Counted from the first letter of the stretch, positions 3,119 to 64,000 are shown. The stretch is 64,000 nucleotides of DNA from Escherichia phage vB_EcoS_ESCO40 (NC_106514.1); one strand, 5' to 3'. A program made the numbers and translations. Notes: generated by a model from the sequence alone, not told the origin.

Positions 3119-5908
3119 GTGTTTTCAATCCTACAAGGTCATGCAGGATTTCATCGCGATTTAGCCACAGGCAATTGGCGAGAAGTTAAAGCAGAAGATT
3201 ATCTTTTTGCTAAAAGATTTTCCTCAAAGCATCCTGAAGGTAAACCAGCTTCAATGCCCTTCAAGTTTGATGTAATTGACGAAGTTGATCCTCAAACCCT
3301 AGTAGAAATGCTCCCTCTTATGAGACGTTTAACGTCTGACCCTCATATCGTTGCGGTACGAGGTCGATGTCTTGCACCTAAAAATAATGTGCGGCGTAAG
3401 AAGGGCAACTTTAATGTATCTAATCCAAGTCATATAATCGCAATGGATGTGGATGGTATTGTAGATACAGGAGGTTGTAACAAGTTTGATCTTGTTGGCG
3501 TGGCTCGACATATTATTAGGATGTTAAATAGTATTAGTGAGGATATGTTTCCTCTTGATGCAGGGTTTATCGCTCATGCATCGTCTTCGGCTGGACTAAA
3601 ACCAGGTATCCGAATGCACTTAATACTAGAATCTAATGTTAAAGTTACACAGGGTCAGATCAAGTTCTTATTTACATCTATCAACGAAAGTAGTAGACAA
3701 AAGTATGGCTTTGATATTGCCGACTTAGCTTATTACTCTTCCGTACAGCTCCACTATTTCGCAGATCCTTTATTTATTGATGGTATAGTCGATCCGTTTA
3801 AAGCGGAGGGTGCTTCACGTCTGGTATTTGTTAAAGGCTCAAAAGTAAATTTACCTAATAATCTAGTTGACTATGAAACAACTAGAGGAGAGTTTAAAGA
3901 GGAATTCTACTCTTTACTCGATCAAATTAAAGGTAAAAAAGCTGCCTCTGATAAAGTAGAGGAAACTATCAGTGAGCTAGAAGAGGCTGATGATGGGGTA
4001 TACTTACGTATTATTCCAAAGCTATATCACCGAGCGTTAGAGGATGGGGTAGATTTTGGTTGGCTAGAAAAAGAAATCCGCCCAGCTTTATCAGAATATA
4101 TTGCAACTAAAGATAATAGCCGTAATATTCAGGATTATTTCAATAACGGACGGAAACAGGCATTAAAAGCCTTTGTGAATAACTCTAAGCGTGAGATCCC
4201 TGAAGTATTAAAAGGTATCCCCCTTAAAAAGCTAGAAACTAATTCACTAGAGACTGACAACTTCTTGAAATTAAATACTGTACCACCAGAAGGCTATATG
4301 ACTTTTGTAAAAGCAAGTCTAGGCACAGGTAAAACCACGGCGGTTGTGCGTTGGTTAGATTCAGGGGTTATTAAAGGTAATTTCTTAGCAATTACCAATA
4401 CTAGAGCACTGGTATCTTCAAATGCTAAGAAATTTAGTGCAGGACAATATGATAAGTCTGTAGATATGCTTAATTTTAAGCGTGGTGCTATTGACCGTAT
4501 GTCCACAACTATTCACTCTTTGCATAAATTCAAGAGTTTTATTGGTCAAATTGACGCAATCTTTATCGATGAATGTGATGCAGTAATGAATGACCTATTA
4601 TTCGCTCCGGTTGTTAAGCAACGTCGCGAGTGTATTCAGGTTCTTCGTGATATTCTTGCAACTGCAAAAATAATTATATTATCTGATGGGGATATTAGTG
4701 CAGAAACAATTGAAGCATATGGTTCTTTGATTGAGTTCGATAAACCAGTTGCATTTTACAATCACCACCGTAAAATGCTGTCAAAAGCTCATGCTTATGA
4801 GTTCCCTGATGAATCCAGTATTTGGGTTGCACTTCAGACTTCTCTAGAGATGGGTGAGAAATCTATTCTAGTATCTGATTGTGGCCCGGATGAGCTGAAT
4901 GAGAAAGGTATGGCACTGCGTCGTAATACGGGTGCGTTAGTTAAGGAAATCCATTCAAACTCTACCTCAGATGTGGATATTCGACGTATTCTGGATTACA
5001 CAACTAATGAACTAATTGATCAACAAATTGATTGCTTATTATGTAGTCCATCCGTAACGAGTGGTGTTGACTTTAACTATTTTGATAACGTATTTGTTAT
5101 TACTAGAACTAGTAATCAAGCGCCAAACATGCGTTTTCAAGCAATCAGGCGCGACCGTGGTGCTCAGAATATCTATTATTTTATTGATAAATCCACTAGT
5201 GGGTTCTCTGCTGGTTCTGAACAATATAATATTGATGAAGGTTGGCTGGAGTTAGCACAGCAGTTATATGCGCGTCGCAGGGAGCTAGAATCTAGGAACT
5301 ATACTAGTACTTTACGTTATTACTTGCTTGATCAAGGTGCAACTATTGATATTTTCAGCGAAAGCTGGGGAACTATTGAAGGTGCTGGTAAAGAGTACAC
5401 AGAAGAGCGAATCAAAGCTATTCTGCATTCAACTCCAGATTATTGTGCTCCACGTCATGCGGATGCGTATGAAGCTAAACTACTTCTTGTTCGCTATTAT
5501 CATCTTGAGTCTATTAAAGATGTAACAGTTGAGCATGTTGAACAATATATCAAAGATAAGCCGAATGATCGAGCTGCATTCTTCCATAAGATGCACGAGA
5601 TGTTCTGGGAAGATATTAAGAAGTGTTCAAATGTGACCATTAAACCATTCATAGAAGCTCTGAAAGGTAAGAAGAAGGACTTCTTCCTTAAAACAGGTCA
5701 GAGTGCTAACCCAAAATATGCTAGAATGTATCTTGGTATGATGGGTATTGGTAAAGATATGAACACGGAGAATATCGTAGACTGGTACAGAACCTATTGT
5801 AAAATCGAGTGTATGCCAATTCCTTATAAGTTCATGACTGACGAGGAAAAACATATGCACGATGAAGCAATGTCAGAGCTAGGTGCTAGAAATGACAGTG
5901 AAGAATAA
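3119..5908 (+). CDS. SF2 helicase-domain protein, putative replication initiator / origin-binding-like
   Basis: Walker A GTGKTT and DExD-like IFIDECD in central region; ORF open from 3041 (TTG); GTG at 3119 follows AGGAG by 7 nt; start uncertain. Confidence 0.6.
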   Translation: MFSILQGHAGFHRDLATGNWREVKAEDYLFAKRFSSKHPEGKPASMPFKFDVIDEVDPQTLVEMLPLMRRLTSDPHIVAVRGRCLAPKNNVRRKKGNFNVSNPSHIIAMDVDGIVDTGGCNKFDLVGVARHIIRMLNSISEDMFPLDAGFIAHASSSAGLKPGIRMHLILESNVKVTQGQIKFLFTSINESSRQKYGFDIADLAYYSSVQLHYFADPLFIDGIVDPFKAEGASRLVFVKGSKVNLPNNLVDYETTRGEFKEEFYSLLDQIKGKKAASDKVEETISELEEADDGVYLRIIPKLYHRALEDGVDFGWLEKEIRPALSEYIATKDNSRNIQDYFNNGRKQALKAFVNNSKREIPEVLKGIPLKKLETNSLETDNFLKLNTVPPEGYMTFVKASLGTGKTTAVVRWLDSGVIKGNFLAITNTRALVSSNAKKFSAGQYDKSVDMLNFKRGAIDRMSTTIHSLHKFKSFIGQIDAIFIDECDAVMNDLLFAPVVKQRRECIQVLRDILATAKIIILSDGDISAETIEAYGSLIEFDKPVAFYNHHRKMLSKAHAYEFPDESSIWVALQTSLEMGEKSILVSDCGPDELNEKGMALRRNTGALVKEIHSNSTSDVDIRRILDYTTNELIDQQIDCLLCSPSVTSGVDFNYFDNVFVITRTSNQAPNMRFQAIRRDRGAQNIYYFIDKSTSGFSAGSEQYNIDEGWLELAQQLYARRRELESRNYTSTLRYYLLDQGATIDIFSESWGTIEGAGKEYTEERIKAILHSTPDYCAPRHADAYEAKLLLVRYYHLESIKDVTVEHVEQYIKDKPNDRAAFFHKMHEMFWEDIKKCSNVTIKPFIEALKGKKKDFFLKTGQSANPKYARMYLGMMGIGKDMNTENIVDWYRTYCKIECMPIPYKFMTDEEKHMHDEAMSELGARNDSEE

Positions 5909-8040: not shown

Positions 8041-8349
8041 ATGAGCGAACAGGTAAATCAAAACTATGAAGGACACGTTGATGACCAGTCCATCATACTT
8101 TGGGAGAAGGAGGGGGAACAAGTAAGATTAACAGTATCTGAATTTCGTGGGAATCTATACATGGGTATTCGTTACTGGCTTCTTGATATTAATGATGAAT
8201 GGTTTCCAACGAAATCTGGCTTCTCTTTTCCTTACACCCTAGAAACAACATCACAGCTTTTCTATGCGTTTACACAGATTCTTAGTGAATCTGAGGTTTT
8301 ACATGAAGTACAGAAACGAGCTGAAGAACTCAAAGCCAAGAATGCCTAG
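8041..8349 (+). CDS. PC4/YdbC-like ssDNA-binding protein
   Basis: LTVSEFRGNLYMGIRYWL...WFPTKSGFSFP resembles the PC4-like fold signature; bracketed by two terminators. Confidence 0.45.
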   Translation: MSEQVNQNYEGHVDDQSIILWEKEGEQVRLTVSEFRGNLYMGIRYWLLDINDEWFPTKSGFSFPYTLETTSQLFYAFTQILSESEVLHEVQKRAEELKAKNA

Positions 8350-8366
8350 TTCTTGGCTTTTTCTTT
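8335..8366 (+). terminator. intrinsic terminator
   Basis: GCCAAGAA/TTCTTGGC stem followed by TTTTTCTTT; overlaps the stop codon. Confidence 0.7.
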
Positions 8367-8376
8367 ATAAATGTAT

Positions 8377-8405
8377 TTGCTTTCAACTCAGTTTTGTTAT
8401 ATAAT
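8377..8405 (+). promoter_or_regulatory. T5-type early promoter (P4)
   Basis: TTGCTT-17 bp-TATAAT then ATTTATATAAATTAATGAGAGG. Confidence 0.75.
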
Positions 8406-8434
8406 ATTTATATAAATTAATGAGAGGATCAATC

Positions 8435-8635
8435 ATGGCAATGACAGTAACACTTCCCAAGATTCAAGCAAAACTTAATCTACTTTCCACAGCACGTATT
8501 AATTATCAAGATAGCATAGGCACAGTAAATCAAAAAGCGTACAAAGATGCGTTTCTGAAAGAATCTGCTGATTTGATGGATATGGTTACACAATATAATA
8601 AAGAACTCAAGATGGAAATCGCCGATGATGAATAA
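8435..8635 (+). CDS. hypothetical protein
   Basis: ATG 8 nt after GAGAGGA; the track ORF from 8420 would start inside the conserved promoter leader. Confidence 0.45.
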   Translation: MAMTVTLPKIQAKLNLLSTARINYQDSIGTVNQKAYKDAFLKESADLMDMVTQYNKELKMEIADDE

Positions 8636-9599
8636 TGTAAAAGGCTTTATTAGGCGTTGTCAAGAAGCATATTATCAAGGCATGTCTTTAATCTCTGATG
8701 AGGAGTATGATTGCCTGGTAAAACGCTTCCCGTTAGAAGAAGAGATCGGGCCTAAAGGTGATATTCCACATCTGTATCGTATGTATTCTTTACAGAAAGT
8801 TTATTATAATCGTGGAGATAAACCCCCATTTAACCCCTTAGGTCAGGTAGAAACTGATAAGTTAGATGGTTGTGCAATTTCTCTGTTATATATTAACGGC
8901 GAATTTGTCCAAGCATTAACCCGTGGTAATGGTATTCTAGGGAATGATGTCACAAGCAACGTAAGATTGCTGAACATTCCTAAAAAGATTTCCCAAAAAG
9001 TACCTACTCAAATCACTGGTGAAGTTCTAATTACAAAAGAAGTAGAAAATAAACGTAACTTTGCCTCTGGTGCTATTAACCTCAAAGATAGTGATGATTT
9101 CGTACAACGCATTGGAGAAGGCGGTTTAATCTTTGTTGCTTACGGTATCCAATGTTCTGCTGAATCTGTAGGTATTACAGAAGCATACTTAAAAGATATG
9201 CTTTGGCTAGAGAATGAGAACTTCTTAACAGTTGTTAATGTGCGTTCCTTCTTTAAATGGATTCCGACGGACGGTAAAGTTGTTCGTATTAATGACAACA
9301 ACAAATTCTTCCGTGAAGGCTGGACTAATAAATTCCCTCGTGGAGCATTCGCTATTAAAGAGGATGAAGAAGGCGAAATTACAACTCTTACTAAAGTTGA
9401 ATGGCAGGTAGGGGCTTCTGGTAAAGTAACTCCAGTTGGTTATTTCGAACCGGTAATTATTGATGATGCTACAATTGTTAAGGCGACTCTTAATAACGTT
9501 GATTATATTAACTCTCTCGATCTAGAGATCGGTTGCCAGATTCGAGTGATTCGTGCTGGTGGTGTAATCCCGTGCATAGTAGAGCGAGTATACGATTAA
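8625..9599 (+). CDS. NAD-dependent DNA ligase, N-terminal fragment (Ia-like, adenylation and OB regions)
   Basis: KLDG adenylation motif (KxDG); SDEEYD Ia-like segment; ends where a Zn-finger would follow in an intact LigA. Confidence 0.8.
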   Translation: MMNNVKGFIRRCQEAYYQGMSLISDEEYDCLVKRFPLEEEIGPKGDIPHLYRMYSLQKVYYNRGDKPPFNPLGQVETDKLDGCAISLLYINGEFVQALTRGNGILGNDVTSNVRLLNIPKKISQKVPTQITGEVLITKEVENKRNFASGAINLKDSDDFVQRIGEGGLIFVAYGIQCSAESVGITEAYLKDMLWLENENFLTVVNVRSFFKWIPTDGKVVRINDNNKFFREGWTNKFPRGAFAIKEDEEGEITTLTKVEWQVGASGKVTPVGYFEPVIIDDATIVKATLNNVDYINSLDLEIGCQIRVIRAGGVIPCIVERVYD

Positions 9600-54608: not shown

Positions 54609-55343
54609 TTAGGCAACTTTTAATTTCTCGATGTACTGTTGCGGGCTGCAACTATATTCTGCGCGTTCTTCCTCGGTCATACTTTCCCAGCATAATTTTA
54701 AACGGTCGGCTAGAAATTGATAATCATTATCATCCTCAAGAGATTCATCAATAAAGGTTTCACCTATCAATGTGACACCGATTGATAGAATATCGTTAAT
54801 AGCTTGCGCGTCCAGCGTTTTAAATCCGTATGATGCCGCCGCTGATAGCACGCCTTTATGATCATCAATCATAGTAAAATCAGCGTTCGGATAAAGCTGT
54901 TTAAATAACTCAAAGTAATGGCTTTTATATATAGCGTCTTTACTGTGGTATATTTCGCTAACTTTATCAGCTTCAAAATATTTGTGCAGTGTATCGCGGG
55001 AAAATACGCGGATATTACTATCCCCACGCCCTCGCAGTCCTTGCTTGCGTAGGTAATAATAATCGGACTTGCTCATCAGTCGAGCGGTGCAGATAATGTT
55101 TAACGTGTTAACGTCATTCATACATTGGCGCATATATGTAACAAGCGGCAAGAGTGTATCTTGCATTATTAAATCGTGTTTACATGCTTCATTCTTGTAC
55201 TTATTTAGATCTAGATTGCCGTCGCTATCAAAGCAAGGCGCTACGCGATGGAATGAATTAACGATAGTGCCATCTAGATCCCAAATCATGACGCGGGAAA
55301 TATGCGGGAAATTACGGGTAATATTCGTTTTAACTTGATTCAT
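54609..55343 (-). CDS. dmp: HAD-family deoxyribonucleoside 5'-monophosphatase-like protein
   Basis: 244 aa; MIWDLDGTI HAD motif I; position next to A2-like and A1-like genes. Confidence 0.6.
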   Translation of the reverse strand: MNQVKTNITRNFPHISRVMIWDLDGTIVNSFHRVAPCFDSDGNLDLNKYKNEACKHDLIMQDTLLPLVTYMRQCMNDVNTLNIICTARLMSKSDYYYLRKQGLRGRGDSNIRVFSRDTLHKYFEADKVSEIYHSKDAIYKSHYFELFKQLYPNADFTMIDDHKGVLSAAASYGFKTLDAQAINDILSIGVTLIGETFIDESLEDDNDYQFLADRLKLCWESMTEEERAEYSCSPQQYIEKLKVA

Positions 55344-55885: not shown

Positions 55886-57559
55886 TTACTGTACAAAAAA
55901 TTTGCCGTTCTTAAAGTCGATCAAAGTGCGCTGGCCGTTCGCATAGGTAATAACATGCGTTTGCGTCCAGCTCGACGCGCCAACGTTATAGCCCATGTCC
56001 AGACTACCAGATACGCCAGCGGTATAAACGCCGCCGTAAATGCTGGCGGTGTGAGTGTGCCCCGTGTTTAATTTGCCCAATTTCTTAAATTGCTTCGGAT
56101 TGCCACGGCTCCCGTTAATGCCATTGTGACCGTGTACACCGCACTCAATGCCTGCAATCTTGAAAGATTGATCAGTGGTCAGGAAAATAGCGTTAAATTC
56201 ACAACCTGCAACCTTGCGCAGCGCATAATCCAGCACGTTGAAAGTATCGTCTTTTTCTGCAATAGCTCCGTAAATCGCAGCATTAAGGCGGTGATATAGT
56301 TCCGCGTTGGCTGGATCGTCTTTAATGTTAGCATTACGATCATCAAGCCAACGGGATAACGCCAGATCATGGTTAGATTCAACAATGATCGTTTGAGCAA
56401 AATCGCGCTCCATTGATTCCAGTACGCGCCCGGTATCGATAAGGTCATCCAGAACTTTATCACGTCCGGCGGCGTATTGTTTTGCTAGGAATACACCAGA
56501 AGCGCGGTTGTGATGATTGCGCGATGTAAAATCATGCACGTCATGCACGAATTGATATTTTGGTTTAAGAATATCAACAAGCCCGTAGGTATCACCATGC
56601 CCCCACGACGCAGCGGCGCACTCCTCATCCAATTTTTCGGCGTGTATGTCGCCATATTGCAAGCCTAAAACATGATCGGACGTTTCAAAGCATCCGGCGG
56701 GAGTGGCGCAAATATTCAAATCGTAAAACATGCCGCTTTCGTCCATCGTTTCAAGCTGGCGAACAAAAAATTCACCGTCCTCGTCAAACTCAACAATCAG
56801 CGCACCAAAATTATGTAGCGCCTCGGCCTTTTGCCCTGCCTTTTGCTGAATGTAGTTTTTGAGCGTTGCCGTTCCGGTCGAGTACATACGGCGCACTACT
56901 TCACCTTTTAAAGCTGGGACGCTTTCGGCGGTGATTTTAGCCGCTCCAATTGCCAGACCTTCCAGATTAAGCGCGGTTGCAGTTTCAGCGAATCCAGAAA
57001 GCGGATAATCTGCAGTTGGTAACACGTTAATCTCAGCCATGAAAGCAAAACGGCGATTATTCAAAAACACGTTTTTATTGCAGATATATTTATCAAACGC
57101 AGAATCATATTTGATTCCGTCCGCGCCCTCACCATTTTGAAAACCGTTTTTATTATAAATATACTTGCTAACCAGCAAATCAGCGCCAATAAATTGGGCA
57201 TATTGTTCAAGCGAGGATAAAAAGTTTTTATGCGGGAAAGTATTATTCTGAATCGATGTAATAATAAAGCGTTTACCTTGTTTTACTTCCCAGCTTTCCA
57301 CCGTGCTAGAAATAACTCCAGCGGCTTCAGGGCGGTCATCGTTTTTAATAGCTTTTACAGTTTTTGCCGCTTTTGGTTTCGCTGGTTTATTTGCTTCCAG
57401 CCAATCACAAATAGCGGTGGAATGCTTTGGAGTATCGTAAACCATTTTAGAAATATCGTCACATACTTCCAATTTAGTGGCGCGCAGACGTTTACCATAG
57501 AAATTAAAGTCAGCGGCCATTTTCAGGATAACGGTTTGTTTTTCTGCGGAAATAATCAT
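55886..57559 (-). CDS. A1: pre-early protein A1-like (metallophosphoesterase-type)
   Basis: 557 aa; calcineurin-like motifs GDIHAE, GHGD, NHD, GHTH in the C-terminal half; position and size match T5 A1. Confidence 0.6.
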   Translation of the reverse strand: MIISAEKQTVILKMAADFNFYGKRLRATKLEVCDDISKMVYDTPKHSTAICDWLEANKPAKPKAAKTVKAIKNDDRPEAAGVISSTVESWEVKQGKRFIITSIQNNTFPHKNFLSSLEQYAQFIGADLLVSKYIYNKNGFQNGEGADGIKYDSAFDKYICNKNVFLNNRRFAFMAEINVLPTADYPLSGFAETATALNLEGLAIGAAKITAESVPALKGEVVRRMYSTGTATLKNYIQQKAGQKAEALHNFGALIVEFDEDGEFFVRQLETMDESGMFYDLNICATPAGCFETSDHVLGLQYGDIHAEKLDEECAAASWGHGDTYGLVDILKPKYQFVHDVHDFTSRNHHNRASGVFLAKQYAAGRDKVLDDLIDTGRVLESMERDFAQTIIVESNHDLALSRWLDDRNANIKDDPANAELYHRLNAAIYGAIAEKDDTFNVLDYALRKVAGCEFNAIFLTTDQSFKIAGIECGVHGHNGINGSRGNPKQFKKLGKLNTGHTHTASIYGGVYTAGVSGSLDMGYNVGASSWTQTHVITYANGQRTLIDFKNGKFFVQ

Positions 57560-57909: not shown

Positions 57910-58326
57910 TTATTCGCCAGCGGCTTGTTTTACTTCATCGGCAACGCCTAACAGTTGCGCCACGGCGTCCAGCGTTTCCAATTTTGCACTTTCCAGCGAG
58001 GCCAGATCATCGGCGTCTTTGATAATACCGGAATCGATCGCATGTTTTGCAATAACGCGCACATAATGCGCTTTACGAATGGAACTACCGCCGCCAACCT
58101 TGCGAGGTTTATCGCTTTTCTGATACGCTTTCGCGCTGGTCAATTTTGAGCGAACAGACACGGGAGAAGTCGCGCCAACTGTTTTAGCAATCTCTTTCAG
58201 GCCGTCGCTGTTGGCGAACTCTAATCCATTTTCATTGATTAGCTGTTGATACATAGTAACAGCCTGTTGGGTGTTTTCTTCATTCCATGCGAATTTTGCA
58301 GATTTTTCGGTTTTAACGTTAGCCAT
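57910..58326 (-). CDS. hypothetical protein (138 aa)
   Basis: ORF in the leftward pre-early operon; no motif recognised. Confidence 0.5.
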   Translation of the reverse strand: MANVKTEKSAKFAWNEENTQQAVTMYQQLINENGLEFANSDGLKEIAKTVGATSPVSVRSKLTSAKAYQKSDKPRKVGGGSSIRKAHYVRVIAKHAIDSGIIKDADDLASLESAKLETLDAVAQLLGVADEVKQAAGE

Positions 58327-58422
58327 GATTATAACTCCTATTGAATTAATTTAAGGGATAAGATTAACATAATGTTAATCGTTATATCCCCCGAACTACT
58401 GGGGGATATAAAAGTAACACTA

Positions 58423-58674
58423 TTACGCTACAGCTTCAAATTTTTCGTTCCGCTGGACAACCTTTACAACGTCGCCGGATTTAACCCGAACGTTATAAAT
58501 AGTTTTCCCGTTGTTACTCCGTTCCGTTTCAGCATATACCGCATCAATCACATCGAACGGCATAAGCGCCGCGCCTTTGATGCGTTCGGCCTTTCCAGTT
58601 GCCTCATCCGTTTTAGTAACGAAAGGAATAAAAACGGATTGACCAATTTTAGGCGCGGTAATAACGTTTTTCAT
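58423..58674 (-). CDS. hypothetical protein (83 aa)
   Basis: ORF in the leftward pre-early operon. Confidence 0.45.
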   Translation of the reverse strand: MKNVITAPKIGQSVFIPFVTKTDEATGKAERIKGAALMPFDVIDAVYAETERSNNGKTIYNVRVKSGDVVKVVQRNEKFEAVA

Positions 58675-58901
58675 AGTATAAACTCCTAGTTATTTGGGGA
58701 TTGTTCCGCATTACCTGCTAGAAAGTAGCAGGTAATAAGAAAAAATCCGCTCGCCAATATAATCAATTTAAAGAACTCCACTCAGGCCGCTATATCCCAG
58801 TTAGGGGGCGGGACACATTATGGTAAGTGCCGACCGTCAAATTGTATCAAGTTATCGCTCTTATCGAACTGGGTACATCTTAAAGCCTATCGGCTAGGGT
58901 G

Positions 58902-59105
58902 TCAAACAATTTTTTGCAGTTTTTTATGATTTTCTTTCAGGTCAATCATAATATTTCGCCAGATCATTTCCAGACCTTGCTGGCGGCCTTTCTTGTACTG
59001 CGTGAATCTATATCTTACGGATTGTTGAGCTATTGTCAACAATTTTTTAGTATTGCCATCCAATTTTTTGGCTGGTTTACCAGTTATCAAAAGCGTTTGT
59101 TTCAT
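58902..59105 (-). CDS. hypothetical basic protein (67 aa)
   Basis: Lys/Arg-rich ORF; AAGGA RBS 9 nt upstream on the minus strand. Confidence 0.45.
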   Translation of the reverse strand: MKQTLLITGKPAKKLDGNTKKLLTIAQQSVRYRFTQYKKGRQQGLEMIWRNIMIDLKENHKKLQKIV

Positions 59106-59725
59106 ATCTGCGATTCCTTATATAATTGATAAGTTTACCGCCGATAGACTTTAAGATATACCCAATTTTTAAAGAGCGCGGCGGTAAACTTCCCGCCGTT
59201 GTAGTCCGTTGCCGTCCTACGAGATAAATAATAGCAAATACCAAAAATGGCGCAACCTTATTTTTGTAAAGAAACGTAAAGAAAGCAACACGTCCGGCGT
59301 TCACCTAAGTTTAAAGGAAACGGGCGCGCGAATACCACAAAACACAGCAGATAGGCAAGTAATTTTTTCATTTATATTTGCCTTGCCCTACTTGACAAAA
59401 CTTAAAAAGCTCAAGGCGACGATAAACGGCTTATCCCTTTATGATGGCATACCTGAAAATTTTACCGCTTTCTAGGACGTTTTAGGCGGCTTATTTTCGA
59501 CTTAACAAATATTTAACAAAAGCAAAATTGAAAAATAGTTTGAAAAGATATTGACTTTTTAAAATCAAGATTAAACGAGTTATTTTATAAAATTAATTAA
59601 TTGACTTTTATTTGACGTTGTGTATTAGAAAGATAGCAGACTAATAATTGCTAGGATGATAATCATGCTGGTGGATTGTAACAGCCTGAACTATTAGCAG
59701 ACTATTAATCACGGAAAATCTCATT

Positions 59726-59754
59726 AGCCAACTAACTATTTCCTGAGTTATAAT
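59726..59754 (+). promoter_or_regulatory. promoter-like element with T5-type downstream leader (P10)
   Basis: TATAAT followed by ATAAGCATAAATTAATGAGAT matching the conserved leader of the early promoters; weak -35 (AGCCAA). Confidence 0.45.
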
Positions 59755-59805
59755 ATAAGCATAAATTAATGAGATAATAATAATTATAAGAAATCGTAAC
59801 CAATA

Positions 59806-59897
59806 GAAATAATAACTATAAAAATAATAACTATAAAAATAATAACTATAAAAATAATAACTATAAAAATAATAACTATAAAAATAATAACTATAAG
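59806..59897. repeat. 15-bp tandem repeat, about 6 copies
   Basis: AATAACTATAAAAAT repeated head to tail. Confidence 0.9.
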
Positions 59898-59934
59898 AAA
59901 CTATCGGCCTAAGTGAGAACCACTATCATTTAAG

Positions 59935-59943
59935 TTATCCACA
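59935..59943 (+). promoter_or_regulatory. DnaA box (perfect 9-mer)
   Basis: TTATCCACA. Confidence 0.5.
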
Positions 59944-59994
59944 AGTTTATTAACAGCACTTTTTGACTTGACACGATAGGCGGCGATATAAGGG

Positions 59995-60044
59995 CTTATC
60001 CACAGACTTATCCACAGGTTATCCTACTGTATAAATATACAGGG
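59995..60044 (+). promoter_or_regulatory. composite element A: two tandem DnaA boxes plus a LexA-box-like palindrome
   Basis: TTATCCACA at 59996-60004 and 60008-60016, then TACTGTATAAATATACAGGG (CTGT-N8-ACAG) at 60025-60044. Confidence 0.55.
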
Positions 60045-60308
60045 TAGAAAGGTAGTGTTAACAACTGCAATCAATTTTAAGCGGCCTAAATCGCTTTCTA
60101 ACGAGCTAAATGCAGTGGGGTAATATTAAAGTAAAGCCTTCACCCGCCGCCCTGGTGGCTTCGCCGTGTTTTGCTCTTTACTATACCGCTGCGCGGTTAG
60201 CATAAAACTAGGCGTTAGGCAAGGAAAATAAAAAGGTAAAATAATATTTGCCCCTAGAAAGAAAATACCCTTATCATTCACTCACCGATTAACGAGGGAG
60301 TCCAACAA

Positions 60309-61286
60309 ATGAGGCTGTATAAACCAGATAATGCCACCGTCTTAAAAGGTGCGCTGCGCAACCTGCTGGACGGTAGCAGAACAACCAGCATTAAGCACTT
60401 TGTTAACAAGGCCGAAGATATTCACCAAAATTTTTTTGATGATTTCGATGCCTATGATATGAGTAGTTTTTTGCAATTGTATAAGCAAGGGGCAACGCTT
60501 GTTTTGTATAATCGAGATAATCACCTGCTTACTAGTAGGGGGCCGGATACTGATTTTATAATTGTAAAAGGTAGCACAGTAAAAGCCTATGACACTGGGG
60601 CGGGCTTAGAAGTTTTTTCAATAGAAAACTATGAAGCCAACCCCAATGATCTTTATGACGTTGAAAACTTTCTTGATTCATTTTGGCGTTATTTATCAGT
60701 TGGCTGGAATCGGTCAATTGGTGACGGTTATCGTCTGGCGGCTGTAATGGCTTTTGATGATGATGGCAATTTTTTGCTACCGTCGGAAATATACCCTTAC
60801 GTATATGATGGGGATATAGAAAGCGCGGGCTTTTCTTTCTGGAAGGAGGAAGATCAGCCTATTGACAATATAGAAAAACATGCGGTAAATTCTAACGCTC
60901 AAACCATTGAAAACAAAGGAAAAAATACCATGACCAAGATCGCTAATATCGTTGCCGCTAATAAGTCTGCCGTTGTAAATGCTGCAAAATTGGAAGCGGG
61001 TAAAATTGCACTGACTCAAATCACGAAAGTAGCGGCTAAAAAAGCGCCGTTTATGATTAAAGGCTATATTGATACGCCTATCGGTCGGGTAGTGATTGCT
61101 AACCTGCTTAGCGTGGTGGTTGACCAGTATGCCCCTAGCAACCAGAAAGCGAAAGCGGTAGCGGGTGCAGCTATGGAAGCGGCTATGTTAGAAATGGTGC
61201 AAAGTTTTAACATTGCTGAAATGATTGACGAAATGGTGAAAGGTATTGATATTTCTACTTTTACCGTTAACACCGAAAACGAGTAA
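60309..61286 (+). CDS. hypothetical protein (325 aa)
   Basis: GAGGGAG RBS 9 nt upstream; no motif recognised; first gene of the rightward cassette. Confidence 0.6.
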   Translation: MRLYKPDNATVLKGALRNLLDGSRTTSIKHFVNKAEDIHQNFFDDFDAYDMSSFLQLYKQGATLVLYNRDNHLLTSRGPDTDFIIVKGSTVKAYDTGAGLEVFSIENYEANPNDLYDVENFLDSFWRYLSVGWNRSIGDGYRLAAVMAFDDDGNFLLPSEIYPYVYDGDIESAGFSFWKEEDQPIDNIEKHAVNSNAQTIENKGKNTMTKIANIVAANKSAVVNAAKLEAGKIALTQITKVAAKKAPFMIKGYIDTPIGRVVIANLLSVVVDQYAPSNQKAKAVAGAAMEAAMLEMVQSFNIAEMIDEMVKGIDISTFTVNTENE

Positions 61287-61313
61287 TAGTTAACCTAGTG
61301 TAAAGTTTTGTAA

Positions 61314-61340
61314 AGGTCGCCATAATCGGCGGCCTTTTTT
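61314..61340 (+). terminator. intrinsic terminator
   Basis: GGTCGCC/GGCGGCC hairpin (one G-U pair) followed by TTTTTT. Confidence 0.6.
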
Positions 61341-61348
61341 GTTATAAT
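61340..61348 (+). promoter_or_regulatory. extended -10 promoter element
   Basis: TGTTATAAT (TGn-TATAAT) directly after the terminator T-tract. Confidence 0.4.
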
Positions 61349-61405
61349 GCCTTTACACCAAAACGGTGGATTGAAAATTTTCCCAAAAAATTTTGGAGGC
61401 TTAAA

Positions 61406-61636
61406 ATGGTTGCTTACTCTTCTTCTGACGCTCTTTTCACTGGAAAAGGCTGGGTATCAAATCGCTGGATCATTCAAGAAATGGTGCAAGAATATGGCAT
61501 TGCTAAAACTTACACTACCATTCAGGCGCTTTATGATAATGATCAAATCGATCAGCAAACGGCGGGCTTTTTGCTGGATACCCTAAAAGCGGAACATTGT
61601 ACTAAAAAACAAGCCGCAAAAATTATTTTAATGTAA
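61406..61636 (+). CDS. hypothetical protein (76 aa)
   Basis: GGAGG RBS 7 nt before ATG. Confidence 0.55.
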   Translation: MVAYSSSDALFTGKGWVSNRWIIQEMVQEYGIAKTYTTIQALYDNDQIDQQTAGFLLDTLKAEHCTKKQAAKIILM

Positions 61637-61682
61637 TTAATAACGGGGCGTTATTTTCGCCCCGCTAACTAGGAGAATGAAA

Positions 61683-61832
61683 ATGGTTATTTTTCGAGCT
61701 ATTCTGGCGGGTATCTTGGGCGCTATTTTATCACTTTTTGCCATAGCTTTCGGCGTTCACGCGGTTATTGTTGGCGCGGGTATCGCTGTATTTTCTTATC
61801 TGCTGGGCTGCATGACTAGTAAAGGAGAATAA
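61683..61832 (+). CDS. small membrane protein (49 aa)
   Basis: AGGAG 7 nt upstream; almost entirely hydrophobic (two predicted helices); not in the ORF track because it is under 60 aa. Confidence 0.45.
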   Translation: MVIFRAILAGILGAILSLFAIAFGVHAVIVGAGIAVFSYLLGCMTSKGE

Positions 61833-61834
61833 AA

Positions 61835-62047
61835 ATGATTCGTAACGTTTCCCTTGCTCGTTCAAAGGGTTTTAGGCTGGTGGACGTTAACACGTTCGAG
61901 CGGGAAGACTGTAAAATCGAATATGTAGCACGGAATAAAAACGCCTTCCGTGTTACAGAAAAGAAATTCGATAAGCGCGGCAACGTGATCGCTGAAACGG
62001 TTAAATATTTTGCCACCTTTTACGCTGCGTTTCGTGGGGTACTATGA
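61835..62047 (+). CDS. hypothetical protein (70 aa)
   Basis: AAGGAGAA RBS; Lys/Arg-rich. Confidence 0.55.
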   Translation: MIRNVSLARSKGFRLVDVNTFEREDCKIEYVARNKNAFRVTEKKFDKRGNVIAETVKYFATFYAAFRGVL

Positions 62048-62178
62048 AAAACGTTATTATTATTATTATCCTTGCAATGGTTGGCGGTTTTACCGCCACC
62101 TTGTTTAAGAATGACCCCCTTTTACTGGGGGTTTTTATGCTTTTATCAGGCTATCTGATCGGGAGGATATGCAAATGA
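62044..62178 (+). CDS. small membrane protein (44 aa)
   Basis: Start overlaps upstream stop (ATGA); hydrophobic VIIIIILAMVGGFTATLF and LLLGVFMLLSGYLIG; under 60 aa. Confidence 0.4.
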   Translation: MKNVIIIIILAMVGGFTATLFKNDPLLLGVFMLLSGYLIGRICK

Positions 62179-62519
62179 TCATTTACGAGGGCAATCGTTT
62201 TGTTACTAATTGCCGCCCAGCATTATTAGCAAACTATTTAAACCAGCTTTCGCCAGCTTATAAGGGCGTTATTAATATTTATGAAGGCAAGGCGCACTAT
62301 AAAATCAATGCGGTCGTTGCCCGTGAACTAGCGTTTCAATTTTTGACCTTTGCATCTTGCGACGTTCAGGTTATGGGTGAGGCATTAATCGCAGAAAATG
62401 AAGATGATTTTATTAATATTTTCCGTAAGGTGTGCACCGAGCGCCTGATAATGAAAGGCGCATATATTCAATCCACGGCTGATAGTATTGAAACAGCGTT
62501 TCGAAAGGTGGCGCAATGA
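62169..62519 (+). CDS. hypothetical protein (116 aa)
   Basis: GGGAGG RBS upstream; no motif recognised. Confidence 0.55.
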   Translation: MQMIIYEGNRFVTNCRPALLANYLNQLSPAYKGVINIYEGKAHYKINAVVARELAFQFLTFASCDVQVMGEALIAENEDDFINIFRKVCTERLIMKGAYIQSTADSIETAFRKVAQ

Positions 62520-62611
62520 GATTATATATTTTCGCGGGCAATGTTGAGGCTGCAAATGATTCCGCTGGTGGCGATAACGTTCGCCACTACTGGCAAAAAT
62601 ATATTTACTAG
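62516..62611 (+). CDS. hypothetical small protein (31 aa)
   Basis: Start overlaps upstream stop (ATGA), fills an otherwise empty 100-bp gap. Confidence 0.3.
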   Translation: MRLYIFAGNVEAANDSAGGDNVRHYWQKYIY

Positions 62612-62619
62612 GGGTTACT

Positions 62620-62814
62620 ATGAGCAATAAAATTATTGTGACCAAAACCACCACAACGGTTGACGTTTTTTATGTGCCCGATACGCCGGAAAACCGGCAA
62701 GCGGTCGAACGTGGTGAATATGATAGCGTAATTTATGACGCTGATGGTTATTATCAGCATTTGGTCGATTCCTATGGGGAAGAGGAGAAGATCACGCATC
62801 AATTACCAGACTGA
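62620..62814 (+). CDS. small acidic protein (64 aa)
   Basis: About 14 Asp/Glu against about 5 Lys/Arg; last gene before a terminator. Confidence 0.55.
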   Translation: MSNKIIVTKTTTTVDVFYVPDTPENRQAVERGEYDSVIYDADGYYQHLVDSYGEEEKITHQLPD

Positions 62815-62820
62815 CAACAA

Positions 62821-62844
62821 ACGGGGAGCAGATCCCCGTTTTTC
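62821..62844 (+). terminator. intrinsic terminator
   Basis: ACGGGGA-GCAGA-TCCCCGT hairpin followed by TTTTCAC. Confidence 0.7.
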
Positions 62845-62954
62845 ACACCTGCAACCAGATAACCCCTTGTTTTAGTATCCCCGCCAAAATTAAACGCGTT
62901 AGAATGCGATCTAGGACGTTTTAAGCCTATATTAGAATTATTCACTGCATAGGA

Positions 62955-63064
62955 ATACTGTATAAATATACAGTAGAATAACCTGGGGATAAGTCTGTGG
63001 ATAACGCTTCAAAATGGCTAGGATTCTGTCAAGGCAAATCGTGCTGTTGATAAGTCTGTGGATA
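62955..63064 (-). promoter_or_regulatory. composite element B: LexA-box-like palindrome plus two DnaA boxes, inverted relative to element A
   Basis: TACTGTATAAATATACAGTA at 62955-62974 (one mismatch to the SOS-box consensus as recalled); TGTGGATAA at 62995-63003 and 63056-63064. Confidence 0.55.
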
Positions 63065-63093
63065 ACCTAAATAACAGTGTTTCTCACTTCCAT

Positions 63094-63290
63094 TCTTAAA
63101 TGAGAATCATTATCATTCGCATTCCACTATCTAACCGATAATCATTTCCTTTCTTAAATGAGAATCATTTCACTTTTTGAATAGTTCTCATTCTCTTTCT
63201 TAAATGAGAATCAATCTCATTTCATTTTCTAAATGCGAATTATTATCATTCTCATTCCGCTTTTTAAATGATAATGATTCTCATTATCAT
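63094..63290. repeat. array of about 5 AT-rich direct repeats (TCTTAAATGAGAATCAT-type)
   Basis: Copies at about 63094, 63153, 63198, 63227 and 63262; the last contains GATAATGATTCTCATTATC, 17 of 19 matches to the Fur-box consensus as recalled. Confidence 0.7.
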
Positions 63291-63328
63291 TCGCATTCAG
63301 GCGAGCAGGGCAATTGCCCTGCGCTTTT

Positions 63329-63929
63329 GTGCAAATCCGACAATTGCTCCAAGGGTTACGTGCTGGCGTGTATGTGCAAATCCGACAATTTTTGGTAGTG
63401 TGCAAATCCGACCCGAAAAATTTTTATAGTGTGCGAATCCGACAATGAATTTTCCTAAAAACTCCAGCAATCACGAACTGCGTTCGAATCCTGTGGGATA
63501 TGTGCAAATCCGACACGGTTTTTCTAGGATTAAGATGTGCGAATCCGATGAAGTTTTTGTGAGTTCGATTGGAAGGTGTGTGATTGTATGGGTTTGTGGA
63601 GAAGGTGAGAGAGCGAGAGAAATTTGGTGGGCTAGAAGGATGTGGTCGCAGGATTGGTGTGGAGCACCTGGTTTGCGGGGATTTTGGGGAAGAGTTGAGA
63701 TAATTTGGGGAAATTTGAGATAGGTGCAGAAAAAGTAAAATTTTATTAGCAAAATGGGGCAAAATAGCTTGACAAGTGAAAATTCTTGTGGCTCTAAAAA
63801 CTCAGGCAATCATGGGCCTTCGGCCCGAAATAATGCTGCTATTTTCAGGAGAGTAAGAGTTCCTAAAAACTTAGGCGTTTGTGCAAATCCGACCATAAAT
63901 TTCTAGAAACACAATGTGCGAATCCGACA
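63329..63929 (+). repeat. eight dispersed direct copies of a 14-bp motif GTGC(A/G)AATCCGA(C/T)
   Basis: Copies at 63329, 63374, 63400, 63431, 63502, 63537, 63881 and 63916, all in the same orientation, each followed within 12 nt by a T-run. Confidence 0.85.
63575..63730 (+). other. G+T-rich strand-asymmetric tract
   Basis: About 150 nt almost devoid of C on the plus strand (GGTGTGTGATTGTATGGGTTTGTGGAGAAGGTGAGAGAGCGAGAG...). Confidence 0.7.
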
Positions 63930-63970
63930 GTAATTTCTGGAAATGTGTTTTCAAAAAATGTCTTCTAGAA

Positions 63971-64000
63971 ATAACCGCCCTCCCTATAACCGCCCTCCCT
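63971..64000 (+). repeat. 15-bp direct repeat, 2 copies, at window edge
   Basis: ATAACCGCCCTCCCT twice in tandem. Confidence 0.8.

Follow-up and report, generated by a model that had tools for sequence, protein, structure and literature searches.

The stretch from 60309 to 62814 of Escherichia phage vB_EcoS_ESCO40 (NC_106514.1), within the 64,000-nucleotide (nt) sequence analysed here and hereafter called "the window", is in all likelihood the rightward pre-early operon in the terminal repeat of a T5-like phage (Markadamsvirinae). It would be orthologous to T5 genes 011-017, and its products would be separate host-takeover effectors rather than the parts of one machine. The cassette is already known: T5 genes 011-017, the second operon of the first-injected DNA, belong to textbook T5 biology, have been annotated since the T5 genome, and were included in functional screens in 2021 (PMC8201957) and 2026 (bioRxiv 10.64898/2026.04.02.716235). 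A preliminary description of the window had offered the cassette as an undescribed anti-defence or host-takeover system of uncharacterised genes. Membership in the host-takeover gene set is borne out. "Undescribed" has to be given up, because of the long annotation, the two screens and the demonstrated biochemistry of 015. "Uncharacterised" fails for 015, the orthologue of a characterised enzyme, and for 011 and 013, the orthologues of genes with published toxicity, and it holds for the rest.

Orthology to the second pre-early operon of T5

A megablast search with the region returned 439 phage records, all of them T5-like. The top match was BF23, with 92% identity over 100% of the query, and it lies within the annotated left terminal repeat of BF23. 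The first encoded protein, of 325 amino acids (aa), is 100% identical to ESCO40_00166 of Escherichia phage vB_EcoS_ESCO40. The open reading frames (ORFs) correspond gene by gene to those of T5 (NC_005859), BF23 and HdH2, with which they are collinear and share 67-100% identity, and they map one-to-one onto T5 011, 012, 013, 014, 015 and 017. The protein identities to T5 are 76% (011), 97% (012), 67% (013), 97% (014), 92% (015), 94% (a 31-aa ORF) and 94% (017). Both T5 011-017 (NC_005859 6495-9157, in the left and the right terminal repeat) and BF23_00010-00018 are positioned as the cassette is here, with hdi and its repeat region on one side and the injection-stop repeats on the other. The strand arrangement, the promoter, the two terminators and the gene order are likewise as in the window.

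The window also differs from these phages in several respects. It lacks T5.016 and the hegG homing endonuclease, both features of T5, and it has a 44-aa membrane ORF that T5 lacks. Its 013 is a short allele, with about 10 residues fewer than the T5 form. The N-terminal domain of its 011 is of the BF23/HdH2 type (95-96% identical) and differs from that of T5, and the extra 165-aa gene that follows 011 in BF23 is missing here.

Upstream, on the minus strand, the homologues of dmp (54609-55343), 002, A1 (55886-57559), 005, A2 (57910-58326), 007 and hdi (58902-59105) follow in T5 order. The cassette is divergent from this dmp-A1-A2-hdi operon and lies upstream of injection-stop-like repeats, which begin at about 62950. 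By analogy with T5 and BF23, the region would belong to the terminal repeat and hence to the first-step-transfer DNA. The earlier placement in the first-injected DNA agrees with this, and homologues of dmp, A1, A2, 007 and hdi adjoin. The data on T5, BF23 and Bas33 similarly suggest the pre-early class, with transcription before the second-step transfer, and the conserved promoter-like sites agree. For Bas33, a related Tequintavirus, transcripts of the pre-early region are on record, and mass spectrometry identified ten pre-early proteins (PMC13250531).

Genes and putative transcription units

All eight ORFs lie on the plus strand where the preliminary description had placed them, and all are under purifying selection. 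The pooled ratio of non-synonymous to synonymous differences (pN/pS), calculated for each ORF against 7-24 distinct coding sequences of homologues in T5-like loci, is 0.06-0.34 over the eight ORFs, so that all are constrained as proteins; the underlying counts are low for the two smallest (31 and 44 aa). From left to right, the ORFs are the 011 homologue (60309-61286, 325 aa, mildly acidic; DUF7566, phrog_4263; pN/pS 0.25), the 012 homologue (61406-61636, 76 aa; phrog_5145; pN/pS 0.19), the 013 homologue (61683-61832, 49 aa, or 51 aa from 61677; phrog_5607; pN/pS 0.20), the basic 014 homologue (61835-62047, 70 aa, isoelectric point (pI) 10.0; phrog_4227; pN/pS 0.07), a 44-aa hydrophobic peptide (62044-62178; phrog_19184; pN/pS 0.34), the 015 orthologue (62175-62519, 114 aa, or 116 aa from 62169; pN/pS 0.06), the 31-aa ORF (62516-62611; phrog_22819; pN/pS 0.17) and the acidic 017 homologue (62620-62814, 64 aa; phrog_6973; pN/pS 0.14). 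Each product falls into its own PHROG family at an E-value of 1e-23 or better; apart from phrog_4227, whose name is misplaced (see below), none of these families has an assigned function. Scans of the products with Pfam, NCBIfam and PADLOC found nothing besides DUF7566, and sequence searches of the PDB with the 325-, 114-, 70-, 64- and 76-aa products gave no match.

The overlaps between starts and preceding stops that had been pointed out are of the ATGA type, and couple four consecutive genes: 014, the 44-aa ORF, 015 and the 31-aa ORF. The 44-aa ORF, missing in T5, is annotated in BF23, HdH2 and DT57C and occurs in about half of the relatives. The 31-aa ORF, first listed only as a possible peptide, can be accepted with more assurance, given its constraint and its own PHROG. 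Another T5 record lists it as "ORF017", BF23 has it as BF23_00017, and only a fraction of the relatives carry it. Some relatives have it fused in frame with the 017 homologue, in proteins of 99 aa (P0186, P0190, P0196), a further argument for its translation. The window has a TAG stop between it and 017, and the two frames are one base out of step (62516-62814).

How would these genes be transcribed? A sigma-70 promoter-like site precedes the 011 homologue on the plus strand (60248-60277; TTGCCC, 18 nt and TATCAT, after an A-rich tract). Both hexamers are kept in T5, BF23, HdH2, SSP1 and STG2, and the T5 record annotates a promoter at the same place. The 011 homologue is followed by an intrinsic terminator (61312-61343, plus strand), a 10-base-pair (bp) G+C-rich stem and then T6, which is annotated in T5 and HdH2. 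Its hairpin (61312-61337) has a folding energy of -16.4 kcal/mol (z -3.9 versus shuffled controls), and its stem shows compensatory differences between phages. Directly abutting this terminator is an extended -10 element, TGTTATAAT (61340-61348, plus strand), which forms with it a compact terminator-promoter junction. The element is invariant in six T5-like phages, and the BF23 record predicts a promoter at its position. A second intrinsic terminator (62819-62843, plus strand), annotated at the same place in BF23, closes the operon; its hairpin (62819-62841; -14.3 kcal/mol, z -3.8 versus shuffled controls) is followed by a U-run. Both of the terminators that had been assigned to the unit (61314, 62821) are accordingly stable hairpins with U-runs.

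These elements lead us to infer two transcription units, one of 011 alone and one of 012 through 017 from the putative extended -10 promoter. On first-step transfer, the host sigma-70 RNA polymerase would transcribe the region at once. The first unit would run from its promoter through 011 to the terminator, and the second from the extended -10 promoter through 012, 013, 014, the 44-aa ORF, 015, the 31-aa ORF and 017 to the closing terminator, with translation probably coupled from 014 to the 31-aa ORF. A further hairpin between 012 and 013 (61644-61664, plus strand; -14.8 kcal/mol) has no U-run, and may act in the processing or stability of the RNA. An Rfam scan of 58000-64000 found no RNA family.

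An orthologue of the Ung-dependent nickase and a misplaced enzyme name

Mahata et al. (2021) cloned 13 T5 genes without an assigned function, including 011-017, and found 008, 011 and 015 to be toxic (PMC8201957). T5.015 binds the host uracil glycosylase Ung and nicks the abasic sites made by Ung, which leads to replication arrest, and the toxicity-dead mutant is K85A,K94A,K111A (PMC8201957). The expression of T5 015 also results in elongated cells with trapped nucleoids, a septation phenotype (bioRxiv 10.64898/2026.04.02.716235). The 114-aa ORF at 62175-62519 is 92% identical to T5.015 over residues 1-114, its full length, and Lys85, Lys94 and Lys111 are all kept. Judged by this identity and the three lysines, the 114-aa protein is the nickase orthologue, and Ung binding and abasic-site nicking are predicted for it. 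T5.015 has the same length and the same toxicity-required lysines as the window protein. In the infected cell, the 114-aa protein would bind the host Ung and nick Ung-made abasic sites in uracil-containing host DNA, thereby arresting host replication.

In RefSeq and in PHROG 4227, the name of this enzyme sits on the neighbouring 70-aa protein rather than on T5.015. The RefSeq label of the 70-aa T5.014 family reads [quoted passage not shown]; the same label recurs in several RefSeq relatives and in PHROG 4227, and at least one GenBank record calls the 70-aa family "endonuclease". The genes concerned are 61835-62047 and 62175-62519 in the window, and 8086-8298 and 8300-8644 in T5. The label is wrong because a 70-aa protein cannot hold Lys85, Lys94 and Lys111, whereas T5.015 has lysines at exactly positions 85, 94 and 111. 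The Ung-endonuclease name on the T5.014 family is a mis-assignment, and the true enzyme is the 114-aa T5.015 family. A cross-reference in the DT57C record equates T5.014 with T5p013 and ORF015, and T5.015 with T5p014 and ORF016, which suggests that the slip arose from the three competing numbering schemes. The error is propagating, and mining RefSeq or PHROGs for the Ung-dependent nickase returns the wrong protein. The 014 homologue itself is among the two most constrained genes of the cassette, and both 014 and 015 keep about 90% identity between two genera.

Modular architecture of the 011 family

The 325-aa protein matches Pfam DUF7566 (PF24450) with an E-value of 2e-108 and 363 bits, as compared to a cut-off of 27, over model positions 5-335 of 336, its full length; the corresponding PHROG families are phrog_4263 and phrog_16673. 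The DUF7566 model treats the protein as one unit. In contrast, our data resolve a C-terminal module of about 110 aa, which occurs with unrelated N-terminal domains (HIRAN, ExoX-like or none) in hundreds of phage-like proteins. The window protein begins with a variable alpha/beta domain (residues ~1-160), continues with a linker that is disordered, and ends in a helical module that is highly conserved (residues ~205-320). In the alignment of Tequintavirus with Klebsiella Sugarlandvirus proteins, the C-terminal ~110 aa are nearly invariant, while the N-terminal domains are ~20-25% identical.

The C-terminal 121 residues (window 60921-61283) served as the query against 1.84 billion cluster representatives. 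The module alone matched 677 clusters at 50% identity with E-values of 0.001 or less, including 348 at 1e-10 or less, in proteins of 84-544 aa, and the match was invariably C-terminal. Among the best 148-149 representatives, 23 (by Pfam) to 26 (by jackhmmer) have a HIRAN domain at the N-terminus, 18 are the bare module, 12 have the N-terminal domain of the window protein, and one has an ExoX-like C-terminal domain. One of the HIRAN fusions (L036 9981-11381) is encoded on a 52-kb phage-like metagenomic contig, among early-type genes for HNH, NinX, RdgC and an SNF2 helicase. The search for HIRAN fusions in cultured phages by tblastn gave the C-terminal module only, and a scan of viral contigs gave nothing. 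The profile of the module had no match among the PDB sequences. HIRAN domains bind DNA ends.

T5 011 was toxic in both screens (PMC8201957; bioRxiv 10.64898/2026.04.02.716235). Annor et al. (2026) found that it disorganises the nucleoid, and called it resistant to functional predictions (bioRxiv 10.64898/2026.04.02.716235). The DNA-end binding of HIRAN and this published nucleoid phenotype support the inference, short of proof, that the 011 family acts on the host DNA or nucleoid by means of a constant C-terminal module and swappable targeting domains. The 325-aa protein would accordingly disturb nucleoid organisation, as its T5 counterpart does. Since the module is joined to HIRAN DNA-binding domains in other phages, the conserved helical module may serve as the effector or anchor, and the swappable N-terminal domain may set the target. 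The modular build and the HIRAN fusions offer a way into this toxic protein.

Two broader proposals, which we put forward tentatively and consider rather doubtful, are that the C-terminal module of DUF7566 defines a large and so far unrecognised family of phage early effectors, or that the strictly co-inherited 014-015 pair, rather than 015 by itself, is the functional Ung-dependent DNA-damage unit or even part of the long-sought nuclease protection of T5 DNA. If the former were true, a constant helical module with interchangeable targeting domains (HIRAN, ExoX-like, T5-type) would attack or reorganise the host nucleoid.

Two other ideas about the N-terminal domain of the window protein were rejected. 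It is not a divergent HIRAN domain (hhalign probability 0.1%), and its allele does not track genus or restriction phenotype: the Tequintavirus Bas33 HildyBeyeler has the Epseptimavirus allele type, at 56% identity. Some 011 homologues bear the stray GenBank names "DNA N-6-adenine methyltransferase" or "37 kD pre-early protein" (STG2 3489-4490, LmqsSP1, and L034 1584-2582), and Pfam found no methyltransferase domain in them.

The membrane protein 013 and the 012 homologue

The 49-aa product has two hydrophobic helices, with a maximum 19-residue hydropathy of 2.54 and a length of less than 60 aa, and so qualifies as a two-helix small membrane protein. The T5.013 record also notes two transmembrane domains. 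When over-expressed, T5 gp013, with its two transmembrane helices, produces lysis-like cells and loss of integrity (bioRxiv 10.64898/2026.04.02.716235). By extension from this phenotype, the 49-aa protein would perturb the inner membrane.

T5 012 was non-toxic in both screens (PMC8201957; bioRxiv 10.64898/2026.04.02.716235). A 32-nt direct repeat prompted us to ask whether 012 resembles the end of 011, and BLASTP found nothing.

Separate effectors or a core module

How do the products of the cassette relate to one another? Among 33 loci, the gene content is a mosaic, in which the 44-aa ORF, the 31-aa ORF, 012, 017 and inserted extra genes vary among close relatives. DT57C (L037 5966-6917) has a minimal cassette of 013, 014, the 44-aa ORF, 015 and the 31-aa ORF, without 011, 012 and 017, and this natural deletion could help to sort the functions of the cassette. 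The numbers of phage records with a match also differ from gene to gene: 503 for 011, 435 for 014, 436 for 015 and 294 for 017. The mosaic gene content and the differing record counts argue for independent accessory effectors. The earlier idea of the cassette as one system is contradicted by the mosaic among close relatives and by DT57C.

The genetic data on T5 can be set beside this. The toxic set of Annor et al. (2026) comprises 011, 013 and 015, and also dmp, A1, hdi and hegG (bioRxiv 10.64898/2026.04.02.716235). In their T5 mutant DLDR, the deletion of hegG-017 was added to the loss of dmp, 002, 003, 005 and 007. This mutant keeps only A1, A2, hdi and 009 of the pre-early genes, and is viable with smaller plaques (bioRxiv 10.64898/2026.04.02.716235). 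The products would act as separate, individually dispensable host-takeover effectors.

Several points weigh against this reading. Genes 013, 014 and 015 always occur together, are translationally coupled and are the most constrained, which could mean joint action. All of the functions ascribed to the window products are transferred from T5 orthologues, and toxicity on over-expression is no proof of a natural role. The two screens disagree about 013, which was non-toxic in 2021 (PMC8201957) and toxic in 2026 (bioRxiv 10.64898/2026.04.02.716235). Structure prediction gave a poor model of the 325-aa protein, with a mean predicted local distance difference test (pLDDT) score of 58, and the roles given to its domains come solely from architecture. 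Finally, the second promoter was called solely from a consensus match and conservation.

The first of these points can be extended into a different proposal, in which the core of 013, 014, (the 44-aa ORF) and 015 forms one module, in which the membrane protein and the Ung-dependent nickase act together with a basic partner that binds DNA, the rest being accessory; in such a module, 014 could tune, target or neutralise 015. Genes 014 and 015 are found in near-identical sets of phages (435 versus 436 records), in 33 of the 33 loci and in the minimal cassette of DT57C. They have the lowest pN/pS values (0.07 and 0.06), overlapping stop and start codons link them, and 014 is basic, with a pI of 10. 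However, this co-distribution may merely reflect the low divergence of Markadamsvirinae. Moreover, T5 015 alone is toxic, and it binds Ung and nicks abasic sites in vitro without 014 (PMC8201957), while 014 alone gave no phenotype in either screen (PMC8201957; bioRxiv 10.64898/2026.04.02.716235). We consider a core module of this kind unlikely, and prefer independent effectors.

The acidic protein and the question of anti-defence

The 64-aa product of the 017 homologue has a pI of 4.4 and a net charge of -8, with 13 Asp and Glu versus 5 Lys and Arg, and its family has invariant Asp and Tyr residues. The family is narrow: its 28 clusters in T5-like phages are all at least 81% identical, and a 47%-identical relative occurs in Pectobacterium phage My1. 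The preliminary description had proposed that this protein is a DNA mimic. The known mimics T7 Ocr, ArdA, PBS2 Ugi and phi29 p56 are small, acidic and first-expressed, as the 64-aa protein is. It has no detectable similarity to them in sequence or, as far as a low-confidence model can tell, in fold. Searches of Pfam, NCBIfam and the PDB sequences gave no match for it, and so no known mimic family. Structure prediction followed by Foldseek, named as a check when the mimic was proposed, was run for this protein: the AlphaFold2 model has a mean pLDDT of 50 and matched nothing in the PDB at an E-value of 0.001 or less (including Ugi, Ocr, ArdA and p56), a model too poor to exclude a mimic. The mimic proposal finds no support in the sequence or in this model.

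A wider form of the proposal holds that the cassette is a dedicated anti-defence unit, in which the 64-aa protein, as a DNA mimic, confers the long-known insensitivity of T5-like phages to restriction, CRISPR or RecBCD, or inhibits Ung. The charge and the invariant residues of the protein fit such a role. In addition, a pre-early anti-restriction gene of Tequintavirus is still being sought in the literature (PMC10644984; bioRxiv 10.1101/866236), and T5 growing in a laboratory host does not need the cassette, which would be expected of anti-defence genes; Annor et al. (2026) suggested that the dispensable pre-early genes might matter on defence-carrying hosts (bioRxiv 10.64898/2026.04.02.716235). 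Restriction insensitivity, however, is not matched by the distribution of 017. DT57C, a member of the restriction-insensitive Tequintavirus panel (PMC10644984), has no gene of the 017 family in its terminal repeat, and about 40% of the phage records with 011 lack the family too. Conversely, Epseptimavirus (STG2; Bas29 SuperGirl), reported to be restriction-sensitive (PMC10644984), has the complete cassette including 017. Together with the missing sequence and Foldseek matches, this makes the anti-defence unit very unlikely in our estimation. The comparative sequence data speak against the cassette, or 017, as a general anti-restriction factor of Tequintavirus. The natural deletion in DT57C and the full cassette in the restriction-sensitive Epseptimavirus steer the search for T5 anti-restriction away from 011, 012 and 017.

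The cassette shares a common logic with the leading-region anti-defence clusters of conjugative plasmids and with the early genes of T7 (0.3 and others), in that the first-entering DNA carries small, immediate, host-disarming genes. It differs from the plasmid leading regions and T7 0.3 in that the demonstrated T5 activities are host-damaging only (the nickase, and nucleoid and membrane toxicity).

Inverted repeats around the operon

The bracketing elements noted in the preliminary description are real: conserved inverted repeats with DnaA boxes flank the operon. The left arm (59911-60042) of the 132-nt inverted repeat has DnaA boxes TTATCCACA at 59935, 59996 and 60008, as well as the palindrome TACTGTATAAATATACAG, and the right arm (62958-63089) has its DnaA boxes on the minus strand, in two pairs. 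Complementarity between the 132-nt arms is 78%, and the paired boxes are 3 bp apart at 59996/60008, 62984/62996 and 63045/63057. Five exact TTATCCACA boxes fall within this 3.2 kb, and none within the other 60 kb of the window. The left arm corresponds to IRC-spacer-IRD of T5, and the right arm to IRD'-spacer-IRC'; Davison proposed that both elements contribute to the injection-stop signal (bioRxiv 10.1101/866236).

In My1 (Pectobacterium) and FZ41 (Klebsiella), a segment with an 011-like gene, accompanied in My1 by a 017-like gene, lies between comparable inverted repeats. The repeat arms in relatives were located at L035 2020-2176 and 5940-6096, and at L034 463-530 and 4217-4284. Relative to A1 and A2, the segment in My1 and FZ41 has the opposite orientation to that in the window. 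We infer that the bracketed segment was turned round in the course of the family's evolution, presumably when the repeats recombined with each other. The block between the DnaA-box repeats, which are thought to be part of the injection-stop apparatus, would be a mosaic accessory compartment, inverted in distant relatives.

Could the coding content be incidental, with only the cis architecture of the two DnaA-box inverted repeats for the injection stop mattering, and the genes being exchangeable passengers (morons)? The intervening genes are less conserved than the repeats and the paired DnaA boxes, and the repeats lie 1.85 to 4.26 kb apart in different T5-like phages (bioRxiv 10.1101/866236). 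The confinement of the five exact DnaA boxes to this 3.2 kb, the mosaic content of the cassette, its inversion in My1 and FZ41, and the viability of DLDR (bioRxiv 10.64898/2026.04.02.716235) point in the same direction. However, purifying selection acts on every ORF, 014 and 015 are conserved across the two genera, several of the products have strong and specific effects on E. coli, and DLDR forms smaller plaques (bioRxiv 10.64898/2026.04.02.716235). Genes that are mere passengers are, in our judgement, quite improbable, and we retain the reading of the cassette as a set of host-takeover effectors.

Further repeats lie close to these arms. In the non-coding region from hdi to the left arm (59776-59896), a 15-bp unit, AATAATAACTATAAA, is present in about eight tandem copies, each of which is -10-like on the minus strand. 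About eight scattered copies of TGTGC(A/G)AATCCGAC lie in the injection-stop region, and a 15-nt unit, ATAACCGCCCTCCCT, recurs where the window ends (both within 63320-63935). These last two repeats probably correspond to the DRD-type repeats of T5.

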